From a bacterium (GTDB taxonomy: Bacteria > UBA8248): a stretch of 64,000 bases of DNA. The stretch covers positions 768,001-832,000 of the forward strand of contig OZ242260.1 of assembly GCA_965207065.1 (NCBI GenBank). Direction: 5' to 3'. Below, one piece after another: positions 2,721-19,161 of this stretch. Below the pieces are notes generated by a model. The model was given only the letters and a program-made list of their open reading frames with translations. It made no database searches and had not been told where the DNA came from. Made by a program: the position numbers and the translations under genes. Position 1 is the stretch's first letter. Each line of letters starts with the position of its first letter.

Positions 2721-3122
2721 CAGGGAGACGGTTTAATCGTCGATCCGCTCGTTGATGACGCGAGCGCCCTGAGCAACGCCGATCTCGCGCGCATTCGGAA
2801 AATTGCGTTGAGCTCGGCGGATCTCGCCGGGCGTCTGGCCTCCCTTGACGGACGAGTGGCCGGACTCGCTATCAATTTCGTAAAGCCAGACAAGAAAAGC
2901 AATATGGTGGCCGAGGCCGTGCGCGCCGTCTTTCGGACCGTGGGGCACGCACTCTGGACGACGACCGTGGTTTTGTCGCTCGGTTTTTTGATGTTCACCT
3001 TATCGGGCTACGAGGGAAGTTGGACACTCGGTCTCATGGTTTCGATCACGATCGTCTTTGGGCTCCTCACCGACTTCCTGCTTCTGCCACCCTTGCTGAC
3101 GACACTCGACCGGAAGGATTGA
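2721..3122 (+). pseudogene. Internally deleted MMPL/RND transporter remnant
   Basis: QGDGLIVDPLVDDASALSNADLARIRKIAL...GRVAGLAINF (N-terminal periplasmic part of 4723..7008) fused in frame to EAVRAVFRTVGHALWTTT...LDRKD (its last ~65 aa); no start of its own. Confidence 0.8.
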
Positions 3123-3470
3123 CGGGGCGCGCTCGTCCCGCCCGCGCGGCATTGGGCCCAAGAGCGCGAGCAAATCCTCGCCTGTAGAATTGCGGGTGAA
3201 AGGGGCTATCGCAAAAACCTATTCCTGAATCTTCTGCTGCATTACCTTGATGAAAAAAAATTAAACGTGTTACATTCAAAGCGTTGCGACAAGAGGGTTA
3301 AGAAATTAGCATAAAGCTATCGTTACCCAGTGATGTAGAGGTGGGGAAACCACGAGTCCATTCTGTGGACTGACGAGTTAACGAATCGACTATTATCGTG
3401 CCGGTCTCATGGCCCTTGATAGTCTGTTGAACTCGGAGTCCAGAGAATACTCCTTTGGGAGCATGGACTC

Positions 3471-4643
3471 ATGGCAACTCCGGTAATCCCATCTGCCTAC
3501 GTTGAAGGCTACGAAAATAAGGCGCGCCCTCACGATCAGGAACTGGCGGACCTCTACATCCGGCACACCACCATCGGCGATCCCGTTCTGGACCCGATCA
3601 TGGAGGAGATATCCTCCCTCCCTGCCTATGATTTGCACGCGTTCATCGAGGCCGGCATAGAGCAGCATGACGGCGTTCTGAGGGATGCGCCGCAACCCCT
3701 TCGCGATTTCTTCTGGAATTTCGAAGAGCCAGCCTGGCTTGATCACGAAGCCTTCCGTCCCGGGATTCGTTGTTTCAACGTCAACGTCGATCTCATGCTC
3801 GTCGCGTTCGTGACGGGTGTGCTGGTGGAGGGTTTCTCGACGCTCATCGCCAAGTCCTTCAACAAGACCGGGCGGACGGCGGCAACCCCCAGGCGCCTCA
3901 TGCAGAACAACCGCCAGTTGATGGAGATATTCTACCCCGGCGGGCTGCTAAGGAACGGCGACGGCTGGAAGCTCTCCACGCGCGTCCGGTTCGTGCATGC
4001 GCGCATCAGAAGTCTACTGGCGAAATCAGGCGACTGGGACTTCGAGGCCTGGGGCGCGCCGCTGAGCGCGGCGAACCTGGGGTTGGCCATCTCCATCTTC
4101 TCGATGCAACTGCTCAGATACTCGAAACTCGTGGGAACGAGCTTCAGCATCGAGGAACAGGAGAGCGTACTCGCCGTCTGGCGCTACGCCGGCTATCTCA
4201 TGGGGATACCCGAAACCATCCTCTACACAGACGGGGCGGACGCGGAGAGGAAACACGACATCGCCTATATGTGCGAACCCCCTCCGAGCGCGGATTCGGT
4301 CGACATGGCGAACGCGCTGATCAGGGCCATTGCGCCGGTTGCGGGCGTAACGGACCCGAAGGAACAGGAAGACTTGACGGATCTGGCCTATCGCCTTTCC
4401 ACGGCGTTGATAGGGCAGGAACTCGCGGGTCAGTTCGGGTATCCGAAGCACTCCCGCCTCACCACGATGCTGACGCTTTACATTTTCCGGACGAAACAAC
4501 GCCTCCTGCGCTTTCTGCATAGCAAACAAATCGTCAAGTCCCAGAATTTTTCGCAGCTTCTCAAGATTTCGGTGTACGACGAGGGTGGAATCAGCTACCG
4601 GATGCCCGACCGAGTCAAAGCGTCGGAATCAAGCAAGTGGTAA
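3471..4643 (+). CDS. Lcp/MpaB-like heme oxygenase, copy 2
   Basis: RVRFVHARIR, WG.PLS and WRYAGYLMGI motifs; full-length paralog of 1482..2648; GGGAG RBS. Confidence 0.75.
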   Translation: MATPVIPSAYVEGYENKARPHDQELADLYIRHTTIGDPVLDPIMEEISSLPAYDLHAFIEAGIEQHDGVLRDAPQPLRDFFWNFEEPAWLDHEAFRPGIRCFNVNVDLMLVAFVTGVLVEGFSTLIAKSFNKTGRTAATPRRLMQNNRQLMEIFYPGGLLRNGDGWKLSTRVRFVHARIRSLLAKSGDWDFEAWGAPLSAANLGLAISIFSMQLLRYSKLVGTSFSIEEQESVLAVWRYAGYLMGIPETILYTDGADAERKHDIAYMCEPPPSADSVDMANALIRAIAPVAGVTDPKEQEDLTDLAYRLSTALIGQELAGQFGYPKHSRLTTMLTLYIFRTKQRLLRFLHSKQIVKSQNFSQLLKISVYDEGGISYRMPDRVKASESSKW

Positions 4644-4722
4644 GCGATGTCCGTAATCAGATGCGCCCTGATGGTTCAGCCCCTATCCACACCGTGCCCG
4701 TGACCAAGAGGCGATAACTATC

Positions 4723-7008
4723 GTGCAACTGGATCGCTATATCGATGCCGTTATGCGTCATCGGTGGCTGGTAGTTGCGCTGGCCTTATCGATAATGATC
4801 ATCGCAGGGGCGGGCGGGCGCTTCATCACCGTTGCGAACGATTACCGCATTCTGTTCAGTGAAGACAATCCTCATCTCCTCGCTTTCGACGCGCTGGAGA
4901 ATACCTTTTCCTCATCCGACAACGCGCTTATCGCCATTGCGCCCAAAGGCGGTTCGGTTTTCACCAAGGAGGCGCTCGGCGTGCTCGAGGAGTTGAGCAA
5001 AGCCGCGTGGAAGACGCCGCATTCGAGCCGGGTCGACTCCCTCACGAACTATACCCACAGCCGCGCGGAGGGGGATGACCTGATCGTCGAGCCGCTCGTC
5101 GAAGACGCGGGTTCGCTTACAGAAACAGCCGTCTCGAGAATCCGGAAGATCGCGCTGGGCGCCACCGAAATCGCCGGACGCCTCGTCTCCCGTGACGGAC
5201 GCGTGGGCGGGCTGACGATCACTTTCAATCTGCCCGAAAACCAGGACCTCGCGGTGCGCGAGATAACCGATTACCTGAACGTGGTTCTCCAGAAGGCGCA
5301 CGCGAAACATCCGGACATTGCCTATTACATGACCGGCACCGTCGTCGTAAACCGGTCTTTCCAGGATGCCCCACAGGCCGAAAACAAGGTGCTGTTGCCG
5401 ATTGTGCTACTCGTCATCGTGAGTCTCACGATTATTCTCCTGCGCTCGTTTCTCGGCACTTTGGCGATCATGACCGTTATCATTTTCCCCATCGTTACCG
5501 CAATGGGATTCGCCGGCTGGGTCGGTGCGGTATTCAGTCCCACCAACGCCGGCGTGCCCGTCATCATCATGGTGATAGCTATTGCAGATGCTGTCCACAT
5601 CGTTTCGAGCACTCTTTTCGGCATGAGACGCGGTCTGGAAAAAGATGCCGCGATTGCGGAATCGATCCGCATCAACGCCTGGCCGGTGTTTCTCACCTCG
5701 CTCACGACGGCGATCGGTTTCCTGAGCCTGAACACCTCGGATTCGCCGCCCTTCCACGTCCTGGGCAATTGCGTGACGCTCGGCGTTTTGTGCGCTCTCG
5801 CCTACTCCCTGACGTTGCTGCCGGCGTTGCTATCGATTCTCCCGTTGCGCGCGCCTCGCCGCCGCACGAAGGGGTTAGACTTGTTCGAGCGCTTTGCCGA
5901 CTTCGTCATCTCCTGGCGCAAATTTCTGCTCGTGTTCTTCTCTCTGGCGGTGATTCTTCTGCTGACGGGTATCCCCCGCATCGAGCTGGGCGATGATCTC
6001 ACAAAATTTTTCGACGAGCGCTACCGTGTCCGCCGCGATACGGATTACATCTCCCAACATCTGACCGGCTTCGACAAGCTCGAATATTCCCTGAAAGCCG
6101 GGAGAGAGGGCGGTATTACCGATCCCGTATATCTGCGCAAGGTCGAGGCCTTCGCCGAATGGTACCGGCAGCAGCCGAAAGTGACCCACGTCCAGGCATT
6201 CCCGAACGTTCTGAAACGCCTCAACAAGAACATGCACGGCGACGACCCGGCCTTCTACAGGATCCCCGACGATCCGAAGCTCGCCGCGCAATATCTGCTG
6301 CTTTATGAGTTTTCCCTCCCCTTCGGCATGGACCTCAACAACCGCATCGATGTCTCTAAATCCACAACGCGCATGACCGTTACGATCAGGGACGCGACGT
6401 CGCGCGACCTGCGCACACTCGACAGGCGCGCACAGGCATGGCTCAGCGCCAATGCGCCCGGTTTCGCGCAGGAAGCATCCGGGCTGAGCGTCATCATGGC
6501 TCATGTCTCACAACGAAATATCAACAGCATGTTGAGCGGCACCATCATCGCCATGGCCCTCATTTCGCTCATCCTGATCTGGGTCTTCAAGAATCTCCGC
6601 ATCGGACTCATAAGCCTGCTGCCGAATTTCATCCCCGCGCTCATGACCTTCGGCCTGTGGGGCCATGTCGTCGGCCAATTGGGCCTGGCCTCCTCGGTTG
6701 TGCTCGGCGTTACCTTCGGAATCATCGTGGACGACACGATCCACTTCCTGAGCAAATATCTAAAGGCCCGGAGAGAGGAGGGACTCTCCGCACCCGAGGC
6801 CGTTCGCTATACCTTCCGCGCCGTGGGCCATGCGCTGTGGACTACGACCGTGGTCTTGTCAGCGGGCTTTCTGGTGTTCACCGCGTCGGGGTTCGAGCCC
6901 ACCCGGGTGCTTGGCCTCTTGGTAACGATCACGATTATCTTCGCGCTCCTGGCCGATTTCCTGCTTCTGCCAACCCTGCTGATGGCCATTGACCGGAGAA
7001 ATTCATGA
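4723..7008 (+). CDS. MMPL/RND-family (HpnN-like) lipid transporter
   Basis: 761 aa, two repeats of TM + periplasmic + TM bundle; IAIADAVHI and GIIVDDTIHF motifs. Confidence 0.85.
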   Translation: MQLDRYIDAVMRHRWLVVALALSIMIIAGAGGRFITVANDYRILFSEDNPHLLAFDALENTFSSSDNALIAIAPKGGSVFTKEALGVLEELSKAAWKTPHSSRVDSLTNYTHSRAEGDDLIVEPLVEDAGSLTETAVSRIRKIALGATEIAGRLVSRDGRVGGLTITFNLPENQDLAVREITDYLNVVLQKAHAKHPDIAYYMTGTVVVNRSFQDAPQAENKVLLPIVLLVIVSLTIILLRSFLGTLAIMTVIIFPIVTAMGFAGWVGAVFSPTNAGVPVIIMVIAIADAVHIVSSTLFGMRRGLEKDAAIAESIRINAWPVFLTSLTTAIGFLSLNTSDSPPFHVLGNCVTLGVLCALAYSLTLLPALLSILPLRAPRRRTKGLDLFERFADFVISWRKFLLVFFSLAVILLLTGIPRIELGDDLTKFFDERYRVRRDTDYISQHLTGFDKLEYSLKAGREGGITDPVYLRKVEAFAEWYRQQPKVTHVQAFPNVLKRLNKNMHGDDPAFYRIPDDPKLAAQYLLLYEFSLPFGMDLNNRIDVSKSTTRMTVTIRDATSRDLRTLDRRAQAWLSANAPGFAQEASGLSVIMAHVSQRNINSMLSGTIIAMALISLILIWVFKNLRIGLISLLPNFIPALMTFGLWGHVVGQLGLASSVVLGVTFGIIVDDTIHFLSKYLKARREEGLSAPEAVRYTFRAVGHALWTTTVVLSAGFLVFTASGFEPTRVLGLLVTITIIFALLADFLLLPTLLMAIDRRNS

Positions 7009-10781: not shown

Positions 10782-11183
10782 GGCATGCTCCCAATGAGAA
10801 GAGAACCAAGAAATGATAAGTCGCTGAATGAGCCGTCAATCTACATGCTCGGGCGTCGTTTGTCTATGAAATCGGGGGGTCAATTCCGAGCGAGGAGGGA
10901 GGAATTGCAAGCCGGTGTGTTACTTATCCGCAAGCGATCGCTTCTTACGAAACCGGCTCGAATACGAGTTCCGGCACGATCACCTCCCAGGCGTCGCATC
11001 GTATGGAGTCGTGATACTCCGGTTTGGAAGCCTCACGGCTCCACCCGGTGACGGCCCACACTTCGGCGGAGCGGCAACGGGTTCCGGGCGGCGGCTGGAA
11101 ACCAGCGGCGAGGCTTTCATCCTTGGGGAACAGCCTCGATGAGGGAAGGGAGTGCGCGGCTATATCAAGGGACAGTGGAACTA

Positions 11184-11633
11184 TTAGCTAGCTCTCCCGT
11201 TCGGCAAATTGTCCTTTTCGCTGTCGAAAAATTCACGAATTGTGGACAGAACATCGTCGGGGCGCTGTAGATGGCACTCCCAAACGGTCAAGACCCTCCA
11301 ACCGTCGGCTTCCAGAGAAGCAGCGTTTTCCCGATCTCGAATCCGGGTTCGCTCCAGCTTTGGTTTCCAATAAGCAAGATTAGACTTCGGCAGCCCCGCT
11401 ATCGGGCAATTCGGATCCGGATGCCAATGCCAGAAACAACCATTGACGAAGATCACCGCACGGTGGCGAGGAAGAACCAAATCAGGCCTCCCGGCCATTC
11501 CGCGCCGATGAAGCCGAAAACGATATCCAAGGCGGTGAACCATTGAGCGGACTATTCGTTCGGGTTTCATATCCTGCGAACGAATCCGGGACATGCACCA
11601 AGATCGATCTTGCGGACTCAGATTGTCTGCCAT
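11184..11633 (-). CDS. vsr: Very short patch repair endonuclease
   Basis: MSRIRSQDMKPE, GRPDLV, FVNGCFWH and GWRVLTVWEC Vsr motifs. Confidence 0.92.
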   Translation of the reverse strand: MADNLSPQDRSWCMSRIRSQDMKPERIVRSMVHRLGYRFRLHRRGMAGRPDLVLPRHRAVIFVNGCFWHWHPDPNCPIAGLPKSNLAYWKPKLERTRIRDRENAASLEADGWRVLTVWECHLQRPDDVLSTIREFFDSEKDNLPNGRAS

Positions 11634-11639
11634 TTCAAA

Positions 11640-12401
11640 TCACTGCGCTGCGACCCCATTGACGGCGAGTTCGGCCTCCTCCCGCAACAATCGGTCAAGG
11701 GCTGTATCCGGCAGTGCATCTAACAGCACAACACCGCCTCTGCGGTTTAGGGCAATCATCCAGTTTCGAAAGACGTCTCGTTCAAACAACTCGCCACCGT
11801 TCGCCCAGTGCTCTCGCATCACTGCATATATAGCGCGCAGAAGCTTTTGGTTCATCGATACCGACGGGCGTTCAATCAGCGCCGAACGAACATCTTGTCT
11901 ATGCAGAAGTATGGTCAGGAATTCGCCTGGATGCTCGGGGTCAACATCGTGGGCTATCTTTCCTAGCCACCATAATCGCGAAACCCCGTTATCTCGAATC
12001 ACCGCCCTGTTTCCCGCTGCGAAGAAGTGATTTAGAACTTCGCGGACTGCCTGCTCATTGTCGTCCGGGCGCTGCTTCAGCCACCGCGCAGAAACATATT
12101 GCGGGCAGTCAAAGTGGCACAGATAAACCCACATCCGTTCAATGGACGCCTGATGCGGGGTCAGATCTCGCAATGCGTTGTAGGCAACCAGTGCGTTAAA
12201 AACATCGGTTGCCGAGGGCTGTGGATCATCGACGGAAAGTTTTTCGGCAAGCTCCGGTGCTTCGATTGTTGACTCCCTAGAACCGCCGAACGAAGCCGGA
12301 TGAATAGAGTTGACCGGATCGTAATACCAATCAAGACGATGTTGGACGGTTCGCCTAAGGCTTTCGAGCGTATTGATCGTGCAATAGCGGAGTTTCATCA
12401 T
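11640..12401 (-). CDS. Uncharacterised protein (resembles DUF6339 family)
   Basis: 253-aa ORF with ERMWVYLCH and RDNGVSRLWW motifs, recalled from DUF6339 proteins (not searched); ATGA overlap with the upstream gene. Confidence 0.6.
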   Translation of the reverse strand: MMKLRYCTINTLESLRRTVQHRLDWYYDPVNSIHPASFGGSRESTIEAPELAEKLSVDDPQPSATDVFNALVAYNALRDLTPHQASIERMWVYLCHFDCPQYVSARWLKQRPDDNEQAVREVLNHFFAAGNRAVIRDNGVSRLWWLGKIAHDVDPEHPGEFLTILLHRQDVRSALIERPSVSMNQKLLRAIYAVMREHWANGGELFERDVFRNWMIALNRRGGVVLLDALPDTALDRLLREEAELAVNGVAAQ

Positions 12402-13264
12402 GAATTATCCATCTCGGCACGCTCAATCAGCGGCATCCTCGGAAAGGGGGAGTCAAGCACCTTTTGGGCGTCAACTAGGCGGTTCGAATTATTTTCCCCC
12501 AAAGGTGAACACCCCACAGCTTCAAGGCGCTGGTCGAGAGAGGAAAACCACCGAAACTCTCGATAAACTTCGGAGTCTTGGTCGACTTCATTTAATACGG
12601 CTATCAATGCGGGCAAATAGAGACCATTCATAAGGTATTGCCCTTCAGGTTGGTTGCCGACATGTTCCCGCGCTATGCCATATTGCCGGGAATCTGCATC
12701 TGACATCACAATATAAATACGATCTTCTTCCAGTTCATATTTCCAACGACCGTCTGCAATATTCGAGCGGGATTTGTGTGAAAAAATTGAACCAAGCGGC
12801 GCTTCATCTGCCGTATCGATCCAGTAGTCTTTAGGAACGTCTTCAGCAAGTACGGCACCCGGCTCGATGTCAAATTTCCGTCCGGCAAAATCAGAGTGCC
12901 ATCCTTCCGCGTAAAAATCTAAAAGAGCCTCGATACACACCAAGAATGGGGCAAACTCCACTCGGCCCGATAGGAAGCCTGCGGGGAACGAGTGTTGGAT
13001 ATTTGGTTGGCTTGACTGTAAGAGTTGCCGACAGTGCGTCTGCGAAGACCTGATCAGCAGCGCAAACTGCGCCTTGTTCTGCTTCAAGAGTTCAAGGAGA
13101 CTTGGTTCGCTGAGTTCGAAGAAAGCATCCACTTTGACCGCAGTGCTCTTTATGGTGCGCTTAACTTCAATTTCGACTTCAAACTCCGTGCGCGGGTAGT
13201 CGTCGCCGTAGCTGGATGGCCGTAAAACTGGATGCGGCCAAGCTTTGCCGGGATCGAACTTCAT
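12398..13264 (-). CDS. Hypothetical protein
   Basis: 288-aa ORF starting with KAWPHPVL; 4-nt ATGA overlaps at both ends. Confidence 0.7.
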   Translation of the reverse strand: MKFDPGKAWPHPVLRPSSYGDDYPRTEFEVEIEVKRTIKSTAVKVDAFFELSEPSLLELLKQNKAQFALLIRSSQTHCRQLLQSSQPNIQHSFPAGFLSGRVEFAPFLVCIEALLDFYAEGWHSDFAGRKFDIEPGAVLAEDVPKDYWIDTADEAPLGSIFSHKSRSNIADGRWKYELEEDRIYIVMSDADSRQYGIAREHVGNQPEGQYLMNGLYLPALIAVLNEVDQDSEVYREFRWFSSLDQRLEAVGCSPLGENNSNRLVDAQKVLDSPFPRMPLIERAEMDNS

Positions 13265-15231
13265 ACCTCATTCCCTTCCGTTGTCAGAGCAGCAGACAGA
13301 CGCCAAGCCCTGCCGTCAATCGGTTCGTCAGCAGTGATTTCAATCACGGTTCGCTGGCCTTTCTTTACGCGAACCCGATCAAGCGAAATATCTGGAGTTA
13401 CTGCACGAACGTCATTGCGTGGTATCGGAGATGAATCGCCGGCCTCAGCGAGAATCAAACGGGCAATTCCGTCAGCTTCAGACAAGAAGCTAAGCTGGGA
13501 ACAATTTTCCCGTCCTGCAATCGGAAGGATCCGGACTGCCGAAACGGGAATGCCCTGCCGATTGCTGCTTCCTCCGCGTGTTCCAGTACCGCCTCGACCT
13601 CCTCCGTCCCCCTGTCCTCCGTCACCCTCACCACTACCGTTTTTGCCAGTTCCCGCGCCTCCCTCGTTGCCAATATCTTCGCCGTCGCCCTCTGTGTTTG
13701 AGCCGTCATTTTCCGGCAACCTAGGCGGCACGGGTCTGCGGACCGGTTTGAGTGAAATAGTTACCTTATCTCCAAAGCCTGGTTCGCTATCACCTTCGTC
13801 CTTCTCGGAGCTGGAATCATCGAAAGATTCTTCTGGTTGGTAATCTGGCAGGTACTGTGAGAGTTCTGAGAGTACAGTCCTTCTTCCTCCCTCCGGTGGG
13901 CCAGCATGTTTTCTGATCTCGCTGCGAACCCAAGCGGTTATACGTTTGAGCGCCTTACGGCCTCGCTCTTGTTCTTCTTGAGGCAGTCGTTCTGGTTCGA
14001 ATTGATCGTGTTTTGGATTCTCCATCCTACGCAGGAGCTCATTTCCTTCCGGGTCTTCAAATACACAAAGCGCTGCAAAATCACGAAATCCAGGAAACCG
14101 TAGCAACCCATTTTGTCGGGTAGTCACTAGCATTCCAGTGTTGCGTATGAACGCAACCTTGCCGGGCAACCCATCATCTGTACGAAGCCAAAGCTTGCAA
14201 TGTCCGAGATCGACGTCTTGTTTTTCCACAATTGGCTCACCTTTTGATAATTCCCAAAAGATTTGAGCATCCTGCAGCGTATTGTCAGTTACGGTCTCCG
14301 AGTTCTCCGGGTCATCCGCTTCGATCAAATGCTGGAACCAATCGTCAATGGTGTTACGTTCTATCTCCATGAGATCGGTGAGGTCATCTGGCTCCACGAG
14401 AACAGTCAACCGTCCCGTTCCAATTGCAAAGAAAAAATTTTCAATAACGCTCGCCGCTATGCGATTGCGCCAGTTTTCAGTTTCCCGAAAACCCATAATT
14501 GTCAGGCATGCGCCTTGTTGCGGAAGGCGGGCTTTGTTGAGTACGCGAAATTGGGCTGGGATTTGTTCTGTTAATTCTAAACCTAGTAACTCTCGACACT
14601 CTTTCTTGAATCCATAGAAACCCGTACCTTGCGTTTCGTTTCCACCCGCGTCGCGGTGCGACATGAGAACTGATTTTCCCTGGAATTTTTCCTGATTCTT
14701 GCCGTTCTCAGAAAAATAGGTCCAATAAAAAACCGTCCTCAGCTTCGAGACCGCAAATGGAGCATACTTTCCGATGCCATGTGAACCTCCTGCGCCTTGT
14801 CCTGCCAACTCCGGTTTGTAGCTGACTCCTTGCTTCTTGACGAGATTACTCCAGTGTTCGCCTCGCAGCCCCGTCGTATTGCGGTCAGATACTCGCAGAC
14901 AAGGAATTTTTTTCGATTTTATACTCCGTTCCGCTTCTTGCAGAGGTGCTACAGCAATCGTATCGTTGCTGTCTTTAGCAATTTGCAAACATGCGACAAT
15001 CGCACTTGCGAGTTCGCCCCGGCCAACGATTTCAGGATCTAGGTCAACCAGTTCAAAAGACACATACACCGGGCTGTCTAGCGAAAGACGGGCATCGAGA
15101 GAATTCTGTATCGCCTCTCGTGCGAGACTCGCCAAGGGGGCTCCAGTAAAATGAGCTATGCCTGGGTCATTAAAACCTGCACTCATGCCACCGTTCGTTG
15201 GCGGAAAATGCCAACCGATAGATTCATTCAT
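13261..15231 (-). CDS. GHKL (Bergerat-fold) ATPase-like protein with an acidic/Gly-rich C-terminal linker
   Basis: REAIQNSLDA (N box), VSDRNTTGL (G1-like), GGSHGIGK (G2 box); low-complexity D/E/G tract near the C-terminus. Confidence 0.7.
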   Translation of the reverse strand: MNESIGWHFPPTNGGMSAGFNDPGIAHFTGAPLASLAREAIQNSLDARLSLDSPVYVSFELVDLDPEIVGRGELASAIVACLQIAKDSNDTIAVAPLQEAERSIKSKKIPCLRVSDRNTTGLRGEHWSNLVKKQGVSYKPELAGQGAGGSHGIGKYAPFAVSKLRTVFYWTYFSENGKNQEKFQGKSVLMSHRDAGGNETQGTGFYGFKKECRELLGLELTEQIPAQFRVLNKARLPQQGACLTIMGFRETENWRNRIAASVIENFFFAIGTGRLTVLVEPDDLTDLMEIERNTIDDWFQHLIEADDPENSETVTDNTLQDAQIFWELSKGEPIVEKQDVDLGHCKLWLRTDDGLPGKVAFIRNTGMLVTTRQNGLLRFPGFRDFAALCVFEDPEGNELLRRMENPKHDQFEPERLPQEEQERGRKALKRITAWVRSEIRKHAGPPEGGRRTVLSELSQYLPDYQPEESFDDSSSEKDEGDSEPGFGDKVTISLKPVRRPVPPRLPENDGSNTEGDGEDIGNEGGAGTGKNGSGEGDGGQGDGGGRGGTGTRGGSSNRQGIPVSAVRILPIAGRENCSQLSFLSEADGIARLILAEAGDSSPIPRNDVRAVTPDISLDRVRVKKGQRTVIEITADEPIDGRAWRLSAALTTEGNEV

Positions 15232-16279
15232 TTAAGGCCACCTCACGAATTAGAATCTCTGCGCACAAACTCCCCACCAAACGTGCAAGGCCAACGCAAA
15301 CTGCATTTCCCAGCAAACGATACTGTTCACTCGAAGGCATGTCAGGAAAAAGTTCGTCTGTGCCGTCAAAGCCCTGAAACCGCGCCACCTCATTGATGCT
15401 TAAACGCCGGATCCCCCACTGATCACGAACAAACGGAACATTATGCCCTCCTATTCCCATGTTCGCTGTCAGTGTCGGGCATAGCCCCAGTTTTTTTTCT
15501 CGAACGTATGAACGCCTTAATTGGTAGATGTTCGCATCCGACTCACCTTCATCCATCGCTTTGGCAATCATCTTGAAATAGCGGTTGTCAGGGGGCAGAT
15601 AAGTTCCATTCTCACCAGGCTTCTTGCGGTTGACAAAATCTTCGAGAGGGCGCTTCGTAGCCCCTAATCCGTTAGAAGTGAGAGGAGGCGAGAATGGGTT
15701 GTAAGTAAATCTCCTTTTTGATGCCGCGACCATGAATAGCCGTTCGCGATCCTGCGGCAAATTAGTCGCTTCTTTTACGTTTATGGTCCAACACGACTCC
15801 TCTCGAAACCAGTACCCGGCCCGGCGCAATGCGCGGCGAATCTGATCAAACCAAGCCCCTTTTTCTCCGTGGAGGATGTGGGGCACATTCTCCAAAAGTA
15901 TCAACGAAGGCCGCTTCTCCGGCGGATACTCCTCGATCAGGCGCGGAATCTCGAAAAATAGCGCCCCCCTTGGGTCTTCGAATCCCAAGCGGCCTCCCGC
16001 CTGAGAAAAACTCTGGCAAGGAAATCCCGCAGCTAACAAATCAACTTCATTTAAGCCGTCCGCCTGGACAGACAGCTCACGCACATCCTTGTTGATCACG
16101 GGAACGCCGGGGAAGCGGTACTGGAAAGTAGCACATGCAAATTCATCATTGTCGCTGGCCCAGCGAATCGCAAAACCAGCTTTAACCAGCCCGGACGCAA
16201 ACCCCCCCATGCCGCTGAATAAGCAACCTGCAGTTATTGCGCCGGCTTCGGCAGGCGACGAAGCGCCGTCCACCCTCAT
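15224..16279 (-). CDS. dcm: DNA (cytosine-5)-methyltransferase
   Basis: FSGMGG (I), GFPCQ (IV), ENV (VI), QDRER (VIII) and GNAV (X) motifs; start most likely ATG 16279 rather than 16441. Confidence 0.92.
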   Translation of the reverse strand: MRVDGASSPAEAGAITAGCLFSGMGGFASGLVKAGFAIRWASDNDEFACATFQYRFPGVPVINKDVRELSVQADGLNEVDLLAAGFPCQSFSQAGGRLGFEDPRGALFFEIPRLIEEYPPEKRPSLILLENVPHILHGEKGAWFDQIRRALRRAGYWFREESCWTINVKEATNLPQDRERLFMVAASKRRFTYNPFSPPLTSNGLGATKRPLEDFVNRKKPGENGTYLPPDNRYFKMIAKAMDEGESDANIYQLRRSYVREKKLGLCPTLTANMGIGGHNVPFVRDQWGIRRLSINEVARFQGFDGTDELFPDMPSSEQYRLLGNAVCVGLARLVGSLCAEILIREVALNE

Positions 16280-16655
16280 GGCGAACGGCCCTGATGCGAC
16301 CGGAGAGTTGCCATGTCGTAATTGGTCCTCACCTAATCGGAGCCTGCGGATCGGCTCGCGCCGTGAACGAGGACATGCGTTCGAATGTATCGCGGGGAAA
16401 CGTTCGTCGAAGGGACGAGTCGAAGGGTAAAACGGTCTCACCGGCTGCGGTCGCGCCGATGGCTGGGCCTTCCGTTTCCGCCTGTAATTCGGGCGTGTTC
16501 CTCGTGATGAGACAGATTATACCCACGAAAATCGTAACCGCGCAAGAGGAGCGCCGTCGCGCCGGCTGTGTGATACTGAGGCGGTGGAACCATCGCCCGA
16601 CGGGAAGAACGGCCCTTCGCGGGCGCATCGACGAACGCCGAAATGGAACAACGGG

Positions 16656-17580: not shown

Positions 17581-17737
17581 AAATATCGATAAAATCAGAT
17601 AAATTAACGGGGTAATTCGATAAATTTCTGAAAATTAAATTGTTGGGAAAAGACGCCGCCGAACCGCGACGCAGGGGAATATTGCCATGGCCCGCGGCTC
17701 CCGCGATAACTGCGAATGCGGGGAAATGCGGGGAAAT
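17581..17737 (+). repeat. Dispersed non-coding element, copy A (inverted relative to 21381-21560)
   Basis: Hand alignment to the reverse complement of 21381-21560; shared blocks TCGATAAA, AGATAAATT.ACGGGGT.ATTCGATAAATT, GGAAAAGA, CGCAGGGGAAT and twin GCGGGGA. Confidence 0.8.
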
Positions 17738-17764
17738 GCACACTCGACCGGAGGAATCCAGAAG

Positions 17765-18436
17765 ATGCAGGAACGAGGAAATCCGGCGCGCGCGCTGTTT
17801 CCCGAAATACCGCAAGTCGTTGATTTATATGAGCGAGAAACGGAAGGCCTCCCCGAGGAGGTATTGCGCAGAACGAGAGAGGAGAAGAGCTGGGGCCTGT
17901 GGTCCATCCGGGATCAGGCGAGCCACGTGGCTTCTCTACCCTACCGGTGGCTGCTGATTCGCTGGGGGAAAATACTCTTCGGAGACGACCTCCCGCGCGA
18001 TAAGGAACTCTTCGAGCGCTTCGACGGGCGAATGATGAAAGAGGCGTATTGCCCGCAGATTCAAGACCTTATCGGCGTCATGCGGGACTCGTTCGCTCTC
18101 GCCTGGGAGGTGTTGGGAGCCGAGACGACCGAATCCATCCGCGACGGGAGACATATCACAGAGCGGGTGCCGCACGGCAAGATACGGCCCGGAACCGGCG
18201 AGGACGTGCGCGAATGGCGCGAAAACGTCACCCTCAAGGCCCATGACACCGGCGTTTGGATCGACCCCGACGATGCGGAGCTGTTTCACTTCAACCTCGA
18301 ATACACGTTCCGACACATGCTCTGGGAAGCGTATGCGCATCTCAAAACCATCCAGATGCACAAGAAAGAGGAAGGCCTGGAGCCGCTCGTCCAGATACCG
18401 CAAGAGGGTTACATCCGTGTGCTGAGATGGGAATAA
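17765..18436 (+). CDS. Hypothetical protein, DinB/YfiT-like four-helix fold
   Basis: GGAGG RBS before ATG 17765; WSIRDQASHVAS and HMLWEAYAHLKTI His pattern typical of the DinB superfamily. Confidence 0.55.
   Translation: MQERGNPARALFPEIPQVVDLYERETEGLPEEVLRRTREEKSWGLWSIRDQASHVASLPYRWLLIRWGKILFGDDLPRDKELFERFDGRMMKEAYCPQIQDLIGVMRDSFALAWEVLGAETTESIRDGRHITERVPHGKIRPGTGEDVREWRENVTLKAHDTGVWIDPDDAELFHFNLEYTFRHMLWEAYAHLKTIQMHKKEEGLEPLVQIPQEGYIRVLRWE

Positions 18437-19085: not shown

Positions 19086-19161
<76 letters not shown>

Follow-up and report, generated by a model that had tools for sequence, protein, structure and literature searches.

A methylase-linked PDC-M33 cassette as a candidate restriction-modification-like defence system in a bacterium of the lineage UBA8248

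In a bacterial genome of the lineage UBA8248 (GenBank assembly GCA_965207065.1), a stretch of 64,000 nucleotides (contig OZ242260.1, positions 768,001 to 832,000 of the forward strand; below called the window and numbered from its first letter) contains at 11184-16279 on the minus strand five intact open reading frames (ORFs) of one orientation that are translationally coupled and encode a C5 DNA methyltransferase (C5-MTase), three proteins here called A, B and C, and the very-short-patch-repair endonuclease Vsr. The cassette is a further intact member of PDC-M33, a candidate defence system already catalogued in PADLOC, and thus not a new discovery. We favour, if guardedly, the reading that the locus is a mobile restriction-modification (RM)-like defence cassette in which the PDC-M33 trio A-B-C is the effector arm and DNA without the modification is cut or disabled. 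This reading draws on the matches to PDC-M33, on the gene order MTase-A-B-C-Vsr that is kept in related loci, on the exchange of the methylase for another partner in a sister system, on the probable GHKL-type nature of A, and on the mobility of the cassette.

The three middle proteins match the PDC-M33 models of PADLOC-DB v2.0.0 (PDLC04582, PDLC04583 and PDLC04584-04587) over essentially their full length, with their genes adjacent on one strand. Protein A (13261-15231, minus strand, 656 amino acids) matches PDC-M33A with an E value of 1.4e-104 (residues 1-636 on profile positions 1-603 of 627), protein B (12398-13264, minus strand, 288 amino acids) matches PDC-M33B with 4.3e-42 (residues 7-275 on positions 6-273 of 289), and protein C (11640-12401, minus strand, 253 amino acids) matches PDC-M33C (PDLC04586) with 1.6e-42 (residues 2-244 on positions 1-240 of 247), three further C models matching as well. 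A preliminary description of the locus, made from its letters alone, had found no named system for the gene set, and this has to be withdrawn; its broader claim of an undescribed system survives in part, as PDC-M33 is catalogued as an untested candidate. According to the available part of the source (bioRxiv 10.1101/2024.01.29.577857), the PDC names stand for 145 untested candidates, chosen because their genes are found inside BREX, DISARM or Type I RM loci. A later paper tested eight PADLOC candidates, and in its available part M33 is not among them (PMC12881386); full-text literature searches returned nothing under 'PDC-M33' or 'DUF6339', and the accessible portions of papers on HEPN, Tiamat and cold-seep candidates do not describe the A-B-C trio. 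By its model names the catalogue covers three genes, whereas here the C5-MTase joins the unit, and often Vsr too.

The coupling of the five genes is tight. Read letter by letter, the methylase gene overlaps the start of A by 8 nucleotides, the common letters being ATGAATGA, the A/B and B/C junctions are 4-nucleotide overlaps of the sequence ATGA each, and C is separated from Vsr by a gap of 6 nucleotides, all of which the preliminary description had given correctly. The C5-MTase (15224-16279, minus strand) has 351 amino acids when started at ATG 16279, the other possible start, GTG 16441, giving 405 amino acids. It matches Pfam PF00145 DNA_methylase (4e-53), TIGR00675 dcm (8.9e-56, above the cut-off) and PADLOC MTase_II (4.4e-68), its nearest solved full-length relative is M.HaeIII (3e-21), and it is presumed to be the self-marking (modification) subunit, a C5 DNA methyltransferase being also a feature of classical Type II RM systems. 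Vsr (11184-11633, minus strand, 149 amino acids) matches the Pfam family Vsr (2e-25) and TIGR00632 (1.4e-39, 135 bits against a cut-off of 97.85), aligns over residues 9-126 with the solved Vsr of Escherichia coli (1cw0, 1.4e-21), and is the single PF03852 match in the genome, so that the earlier naming of the two outer genes holds by Pfam and NCBIfam models above their cut-offs. Vsr repairs T:G mismatches left by the deamination of 5-methylcytosine. The pairing resembles the classical dcm-vsr of E. coli, where a C5-MTase likewise goes together with a Vsr, the difference being that here three extra genes stand between the two in one translationally coupled operon. A perfect TATAAT at 16516-16521 on the minus strand lies 237 nucleotides 5' of the methylase ATG and 75 nucleotides 5' of the GTG; a promoter and terminator consensus scan, which called no promoter there, gave 5 and 8 sites against 3.8 and 7.6 from shuffled sequences and is uninformative.

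How firmly the methylase belongs to the trio can be judged from 39 related loci, which were found by searching species-representative genomes with a profile of A and onto which the five proteins of the window were mapped. They are mostly from metagenome-assembled genomes of Dehalococcoidia, Acidimicrobiales, Poribacteria, Entotheonella, Binatia, Acidobacteriota and Proteobacteria. In 34 of the 39, the gene immediately 5' of A on the same strand is a closely related MTase. A C5-MTase of any kind is present in 37, the two exceptions being L027, a copy truncated at its 5' end, and L037, whose contig begins 115 nucleotides before A. B and C follow downstream of A in 36 loci, or 37 if the PADLOC match to B in L038 is counted, and Vsr follows C on the same strand in 27, any Vsr being found in 29; the full order MTase-A-B-C-Vsr is kept in 26/39. 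The preliminary description had expected the trio to co-occur with methylases, and these counts bear it out. The identity of the MTase tracks that of A (Spearman 0.82, n=23, with kin not independent), which reflects co-inheritance and not independent events, because the loci are related to one another. Even the most divergent versions, with 25-29% identity and from Saccharibacteria, Bacteroidales and Flavobacteriaceae, are still A, B and C of PDC-M33 by PADLOC, as are plasmid-type relatives; among the divergent versions, L038 keeps a C5-MTase downstream of the trio and L039 has a divergently oriented MTase-Vsr pair, these two and L019 being the loci with the methylase off its canonical upstream position. 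On a Deinococcus plasmid, genes annotated by the depositors as DNA cytosine methyltransferase and very short patch repair endonuclease are found 2.4 kb upstream of an A-like gene that is followed by two hypothetical genes. Since the C5-MTase is kept in nearly all of these loci and in the divergent and plasmid versions, the functional unit is MTase, A, B and C; Vsr often joins it as a fifth member but is dispensable.

Some of these loci hold more than the cassette. In L014, an unrelated second C5-MTase (33% identity), a Vsr (41%) and a Type II restriction endonuclease-like ORF at 2722-5205 stand just 5' of a Vsr-less MTase-A-B-C. L020, from a Dehalococcoidia genome, has at 3975-5380 a partial second B-C copy about 3 kb upstream of the main cassette, which is disrupted by an insertion sequence (IS), and BilD- and DRT-related ORFs lie downstream. 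In L038, the genes A-B-C-MTase are directly followed at 10873-15697 by a 194-amino-acid ORF without known family, an AAA_5/PDC-M26A ATPase and a protein with DUF2357 and PDDEXK_7, which together are a McrBC-like module, and L038 is thus a small defence island.

A sister system in four congeners shows the trio with another partner. Its proteins A' (672-686 amino acids), B' (279-281) and C' (286-289) have the same order and sizes in L053 (5353-13267), L054 (4179-10966), L055 (4431-11217) and L061 (5752-13379), family libraries being applied to three of these loci and tblastn alone to the remaining one, and they give weak but specific matches to PDC-M33A/B/C and DUF6339. In 4/4 genomes examined, the trio sits directly behind a gene of 446-452 amino acids, and neither an MTase nor a Vsr is present. 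This upstream gene has weak signals of the PAPS-reductase fold (Pfam PAPS_reduct, E 0.008-0.024), matches the PADLOC model SspD with 4e-8 to 9e-8 and, in one locus, BrxP with 2.5e-4, and may be PAPS-reductase-like, as far as such weak profile matches go. Two of the four loci have a GmrSD_N-type gene inside the operon, and in two an ORF of about 960 amino acids without known family follows. The same trio architecture is thus paired with two unrelated modification-type genes, a C5-MTase in the window and a weakly PAPS-reductase-like one in the congeners, and by this comparison of gene neighbourhoods the trio appears to act as a movable effector module that goes with one DNA-modification gene or another. 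That another modification-type gene takes the place of the methylase is what is expected if the trio is a modification-keyed effector.

Protein A consists of N-terminal ATPase motifs, a middle domain, a Gly/acidic-rich linker (about 470-560) and a small C-terminal domain. The motifs REAIQNSLDA, DRNTTGL and GSHGIGK, on which the preliminary description had based its call of a GHKL ATPase, are all present in the translation. The N-box of GHKL proteins is defined as ExxxNxxD, and the corresponding residues E39, N43 and D46 of A are shared without exception by 67 diverse members and by the sister family. For the G1 box, defined as DxGxG, A has the variant form D116-R-N118-T-T-G121-L, which aligns with the canonical L-D-N-G-I-G-L of the sister, and the G2 box, defined as GxxGxG, reads G149-S-H-G152-I-G154-K155. 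E39, N43, D46, D116, N118, G121, G149, G152 and G154 are invariant down to 22% identity. Family libraries assign A to no Pfam or NCBIfam family, the sole recurrent Pfam family among the 67 diverse members is HATPase_c_3 (PF13589), and a search of the genome with this family finds MutL and other GHKL genes and misses A. The link is made through the sister family: by hhalign, A matches A' with 99.5% (E 3e-23), A' matches genuine GHKL proteins (four MutL and eight HATPase_c_3 proteins of the same genus) with 83.3% (8.6e-6), and a combined profile of A and the sister matches them with 73.6% (2.9e-5). The sister A' has in addition NCBIfam matches, all below the curated cut-offs, to the sacsin N-terminal domain (8.8e-8), HSP90 (5.7e-6) and Topo VI subunit B (4e-4), and two of the three scanned A' proteins match HATPase_c (0.006-0.01, below the cut-off). 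Because A is similar to the sister family and the sister family to genuine GHKL, Hsp90 and Topo VI-B-type proteins, A is in all likelihood a very divergent GHKL ATPase that is reached transitively at the sequence level; the earlier call is supported by this route, while no curated GHKL model reaches A itself. A carries a helical insert, about 45 residues long, that separates the first strand from the G1 box and is probably what defeats the curated profiles.

In the middle domain of A, R363, R401 and the motif E404-x3-H408 are invariant, and the form E404-N-P-x-H408 may be taken as a lead toward paraMORC2 (Iyer et al. 2008), with no claim of membership. A sequence-profile search against the Protein Data Bank (PDB) matched A only in the Gly-rich linker (E 0.03-0.45), and the clusters found with A in the ESM Atlas are named 'hypothetical protein' only. 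The family is large, with 7339 clusters (at 50% identity) at E<=1e-3 and 2277 at E<=1e-30. Genomes of the same genus (G002, G009, G011 and others) encode besides MutL several further HATPase_c_3 proteins of 650-800 amino acids, with up to 6 matches in G002, and these are possibly other defence ATPases of the MORC/paraMORC type.

Protein B belongs to no Pfam or NCBIfam family in the library scans, and its sequence profile matched nothing in the PDB. Its AlphaFold2 model (predicted local distance difference test score, pLDDT, 78.5; predicted template modelling score, pTM, 0.54) has a beta-sandwich at about 11-156, more strands to about 187, and helices thereafter. All Foldseek matches are Ig/FN3-like (best E 1.3e-3), and VIA-align wide gives FN3-type domains with Z 6.4-7.9 at a root-mean-square deviation (rmsd) of 2.4-3.4 Å over 77-99 residues. 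The residues invariant across the superfamily, including the sister system, are structural ones only, and B is presumed to be an adaptor or scaffold. A PD-(D/E)xK fold was considered for B and rejected, as the fold searches give Ig/FN3-like sandwiches only and no acidic residue is invariant.

Protein C is, as already suspected in the preliminary description, a DUF6339 protein (Pfam, 1e-42), and its model, which is mostly helical, has high confidence (pLDDT 87.2, pTM 0.85). Foldseek found no match among solved structures (best E 1.0), the best VIA-align wide match (Z 6.3, rmsd 3.4 Å over 85 residues) is within the noise of helical bundles, and a sequence-profile search against the PDB gave one chance match. 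W91, H96, Y102, W144, W145 and two hydrophobic positions are invariant across the superfamily and the sister system, R106 and Q169 nearly so. In the Saccharibacteria contig L037 (2855-4396), the C homologue has 514 amino acids and carries C-terminal Zn_ribbon_Top1 fingers (1.6e-16, in two stretches), a fusion that points to contact with DNA, as far as domain architecture can tell, and C is presumed to be the DNA-contacting subunit. A HEPN RNase was considered as well, owing to R120-x4-H125 in the close family, and rejected, as R120 is not kept in L037-L039 or in the sister C'; no HEPN structure is among the listed fold matches of C by Foldseek and VIA-align.

Under the favoured reading of an RM-like cassette, the C5-MTase would mark the host DNA at its recognition sites, and Vsr would here repair the T:G mismatches that arise from 5-methylcytosine deamination. 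A, B and C would be made in fixed proportion from their overlapping frames and act together. By analogy to MutL, Topo VI-B and MORC, A may dimerise on ATP and clamp or loop DNA, B with its FN3-like sandwich and helical tail could serve as adaptor, C with its helical DUF6339 fold and the invariant Trp/His/Tyr cluster may contact the DNA, and DNA without the modification would then be cut or disabled. As candidate catalytic centre, E404-x3-H408 / R363 / R401 of the A middle domain would come first and C second. We infer that A, B and C associate in a complex; a complex of A(1-450), C and B was also predicted, and as its score did not fall when chain 1 was replaced, it says nothing on binding either way. 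A more far-reaching idea, which we hold to be doubtful, is that A-B-C is a modification-agnostic, ATP-driven DNA-surveillance engine that plugs into unrelated modification enzymes, at least two of them, and has a previously unseen effector chemistry, with C and its invariant Trp/Trp/Trp/His/Tyr cluster as a new modification reader or nuclease fold and the ExxxH of A as the other half of the active centre.

A number of points weigh against this RM-like reading. The 39 loci were found through A and are related to one another, which means that the counts are not independent, and no experiment on PDC-M33 was found in the literature. In the window the cassette is flanked by metabolic genes and is not part of a defence island. 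As to A, no Pfam GHKL family is found in 33 close members even at E<=10, HATPase_c_3 appears in 4/67 diverse members with a best E of 0.013, which is sub-threshold, and direct hhalign comparison of A with the genuine GHKL proteins gives 2-11% probability, compared to 96% for a control of MutL against MORC-like proteins. As to the effector, Pfam, NCBIfam and PADLOC show no restriction endonuclease of the PD-(D/E)xK, HNH, GIY-YIG or PLD fold in A, B or C, which agrees with the preliminary description, and the fold searches with the models of B and C that it had proposed, for PD-(D/E)XK or HNH folds, recognised no nuclease fold in either (Foldseek, VIA-align). Nor is any acidic residue invariant in B or C across the superfamily, so that the two are unlike metal-dependent nucleases.

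It is on this last point that the chief rival builds, which is exclusion without cleavage in the manner of BREX or MORC. The logic of self and non-self would be the same, but unmodified DNA would be kept out or silenced by A-B-C, for example through ATP-driven clamping, through compaction or by blocking its replication. BREX and eukaryotic MORCs are thought to act without DNA cleavage, and the lack of a recognised nuclease fold and of invariant acidic residues in B and C fits such a function, as does the weak match of the sister partner gene to the BrxP model of BREX (2.5e-4). The PDC models derive, in the accessible part of their source, from genes within BREX, DISARM and Type I RM loci, and MORC-type GHKL ATPases compact DNA, according to the available portion of the literature. 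However, the invariant E404-x3-H408 / R363 / R401 of A could be a catalytic site, and the GmrSD_N-type gene within the operon in 2/4 sister loci hints at a nucleolytic outcome, and we regard a mechanism without any cleavage as unlikely. The cassette could also be chiefly a selfish addiction element, in which the loss of methylation lets A-B-C kill the cell and there is little anti-phage benefit. It is mobile, AT-rich and patchy, and IS insertions inactivate A, B or the MTase in 6/39 loci, as expected of a costly element, but in the window none of the five genes is broken. Classical Type II RM systems act both in defence and as addiction elements, so that addiction is compatible with the RM-like reading and does not replace it; as the chief function we consider it improbable.

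Two further explanations were weighed. If the MTase-Vsr pair and A-B-C were functionally separate, the trio would work by itself, in abortive infection or as a sensor, and its linkage to methylases would come from travelling together in defence islands. PADLOC defines PDC-M33 by three models only, and the MTase is outside its canonical upstream position in L019, L038 and L039, which would suit such an arrangement. It is very improbable, however, given that the MTase stop overlaps the A start by 8 nucleotides in the window, that a related MTase stands directly 5' of A on the same strand in 34/39 loci with co-varying identities, that the most divergent loci still hold a C5-MTase, and that the sister system puts another modification-type gene at the same position. 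Least probable of all, in our judgement, is a module for repair or maintenance of methylation without a defence role, with A as a MutL-like stimulator of Vsr and with B and C as accessory proteins. E. coli MutL functionally interacts with Vsr (ref 18 of PMC2292703, in the part of that paper available), Vsr ends the operon in 27/39 loci, and the Vsr of the cassette is the only one in the genome. But because the trio occurs without any Vsr in 10/39 loci, and in the sister system without both MTase and Vsr, it is unlikely that A serves as a MutL-like helper of Vsr. The genome also encodes a MutL of its own (match at 4339097-4339384), and the scattered occurrence, the common breakage by IS elements and the carriage on plasmids are more in keeping with an accessory conflict system than with a repair pathway.

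That the cassette is horizontally acquired, accessory and mobile follows from its base composition, its patchy distribution in the genus, its breakage by IS elements, and its relatives on plasmids and phages. With 0.518, its GC content is below that of all 118 sliding 5.1-kb segments of the 64-kb window (minimum 0.519, median 0.609), and the two adjoining genes have 0.669 and 0.673. The GC content is uneven elsewhere in the window, with 0.51-0.59 at 17.5-22.5 kb, and the contrast is strongest against the immediate neighbours. These neighbours are metabolic genes, namely a molybdopterin-binding dehydrogenase subunit, a TauE/SafE exporter and an amine oxidase, so that the higher AT content and the unrelated metabolic surroundings noted in the preliminary description are both real. 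No flanking direct or inverted repeats of note were found at the cassette edges, and the nearest tRNA gene, tRNA-Phe (19086-19161), is 2.6 kb off and does not adjoin the cassette. A full-strength match to PDC-M33A is found in 2 of 23 genomes of the genus (G000 and G021) and in none of 18 searched outside it. DDE transposases (DDE_5, DDE_Tnp_1, IS66, DDE_3) interrupt A, B or the MTase in six of the 39 loci, namely L009 (9797-11155), L010 (10284-11264), L011 (6657-7835), L028 (6481-7923), L033 (6406-7218) and L020 (8931-10316). Split matches of A in L016, L018 and L029 suggest frameshifts. Distant relatives of A are found on 24 plasmid and 2 phage records, where all are annotated as hypothetical proteins. 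On the Lactococcus lactis plasmid NZ_CP065734.1 (L063, 1-7920), a distant A-like gene for a 655-amino-acid hypothetical protein lies by an IS6 transposase, with a protein kinase gene and an AlwI-family Type II RM system with two adenine methylases also beside it.

Several known systems come close to the cassette. RM-like operons with a GHKL ATPase, a cytosine methylase and Vsr have already been described in the available part of the MORC/paraMORC study (Iyer, Abhiman & Aravind 2008, PMC2292703), and this theme is shared. The operons described there typically have SF-II helicases and nucleases of the RE-fold, HNH or HKD types, none of which Pfam or PADLOC shows in the cassette, and HATPase_c_3, which detects the MutL and other GHKL genes of the genome, does not detect A. 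Mza (mzaABCDE, with MutL-like ATPase, Z1, AIPR and methylase) is likewise a multi-gene methylase cassette with a GHKL-type ATPase, but none of the five proteins here has a Z1 or AIPR Pfam family at E<=0.1, and in PADLOC, which includes Mza models too, A, B and C match the PDC-M33 models only; the cassette is thus not of the mza type, which the preliminary description had named for comparison. Tiamat (bioRxiv 10.64898/2026.09.30.754977) is, in the accessible part of the preprint, a GHL-type defence ATPase often with methylases nearby, for which a speculative clamp-then-cut model is given that would apply to the cassette as well, and sacsin, the N-terminal domain of which is the best NCBIfam match of the sister A', is placed next to it there. 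However, Tiamat is a single gene with its own C-terminal PD-(D/E)xK nuclease, in the portion available, whereas A has no recognised nuclease domain and is always found with B and C, and none of the PADLOC Tiamat models matches A.

As one more intact copy of a catalogued cassette, the copy in the window is of modest value by itself. What is added here is the quantified five-gene unit, the transitive GHKL link of A, the residues that are invariant across the superfamily, and the sister system with a PAPS-reductase-like gene in the place of the methylase. ATPases of the PDC-M33 type are a large family in many bacterial phyla, on archaeal plasmids and in a few phages, and no published mechanism was found for them; a family that is large, widespread and mechanistically blank is a good experimental target. 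If the trio is truly the killing arm of a methylation-keyed immunity, it does its work without a nuclease that present family or fold libraries recognise in either B or C; to find out how would bring RM biology a new effector mechanism and provide a bacterial model of the reading of epigenetic marks by MORC-like ATPases.

In the related loci, the surroundings of the cassette are partly defence-related. From 35 loci the two ORFs closest to the cassette on either side were taken, 136 in all. A PADLOC model is matched at E<=1e-5 by 23 of them, and 16 of these 23, found in 11/35 loci, were judged to be of a specific defence type, with no background rate beside these counts: DRT reverse transcriptases, DruA, mad2/3/8, DrmD, BilD, REase_II, MTase_II, PDC-M07A and AriA/PtuA-like ATPases. 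The other 7 matches are generic (oxidoreductase, HIT, helicase core, cysteine desulfurase and one weak RmrA). The scan omits 14 ORFs, which are 8 of L038/L039 (6 of them scanned separately), 4 of the degraded L036 and 2 duplicate B/C of L020. In the window itself, a 249-amino-acid ORF without Pfam family (17687-18436, plus strand) lies in a stretch of lower GC (0.588) between the TauE gene and tRNA-Phe.

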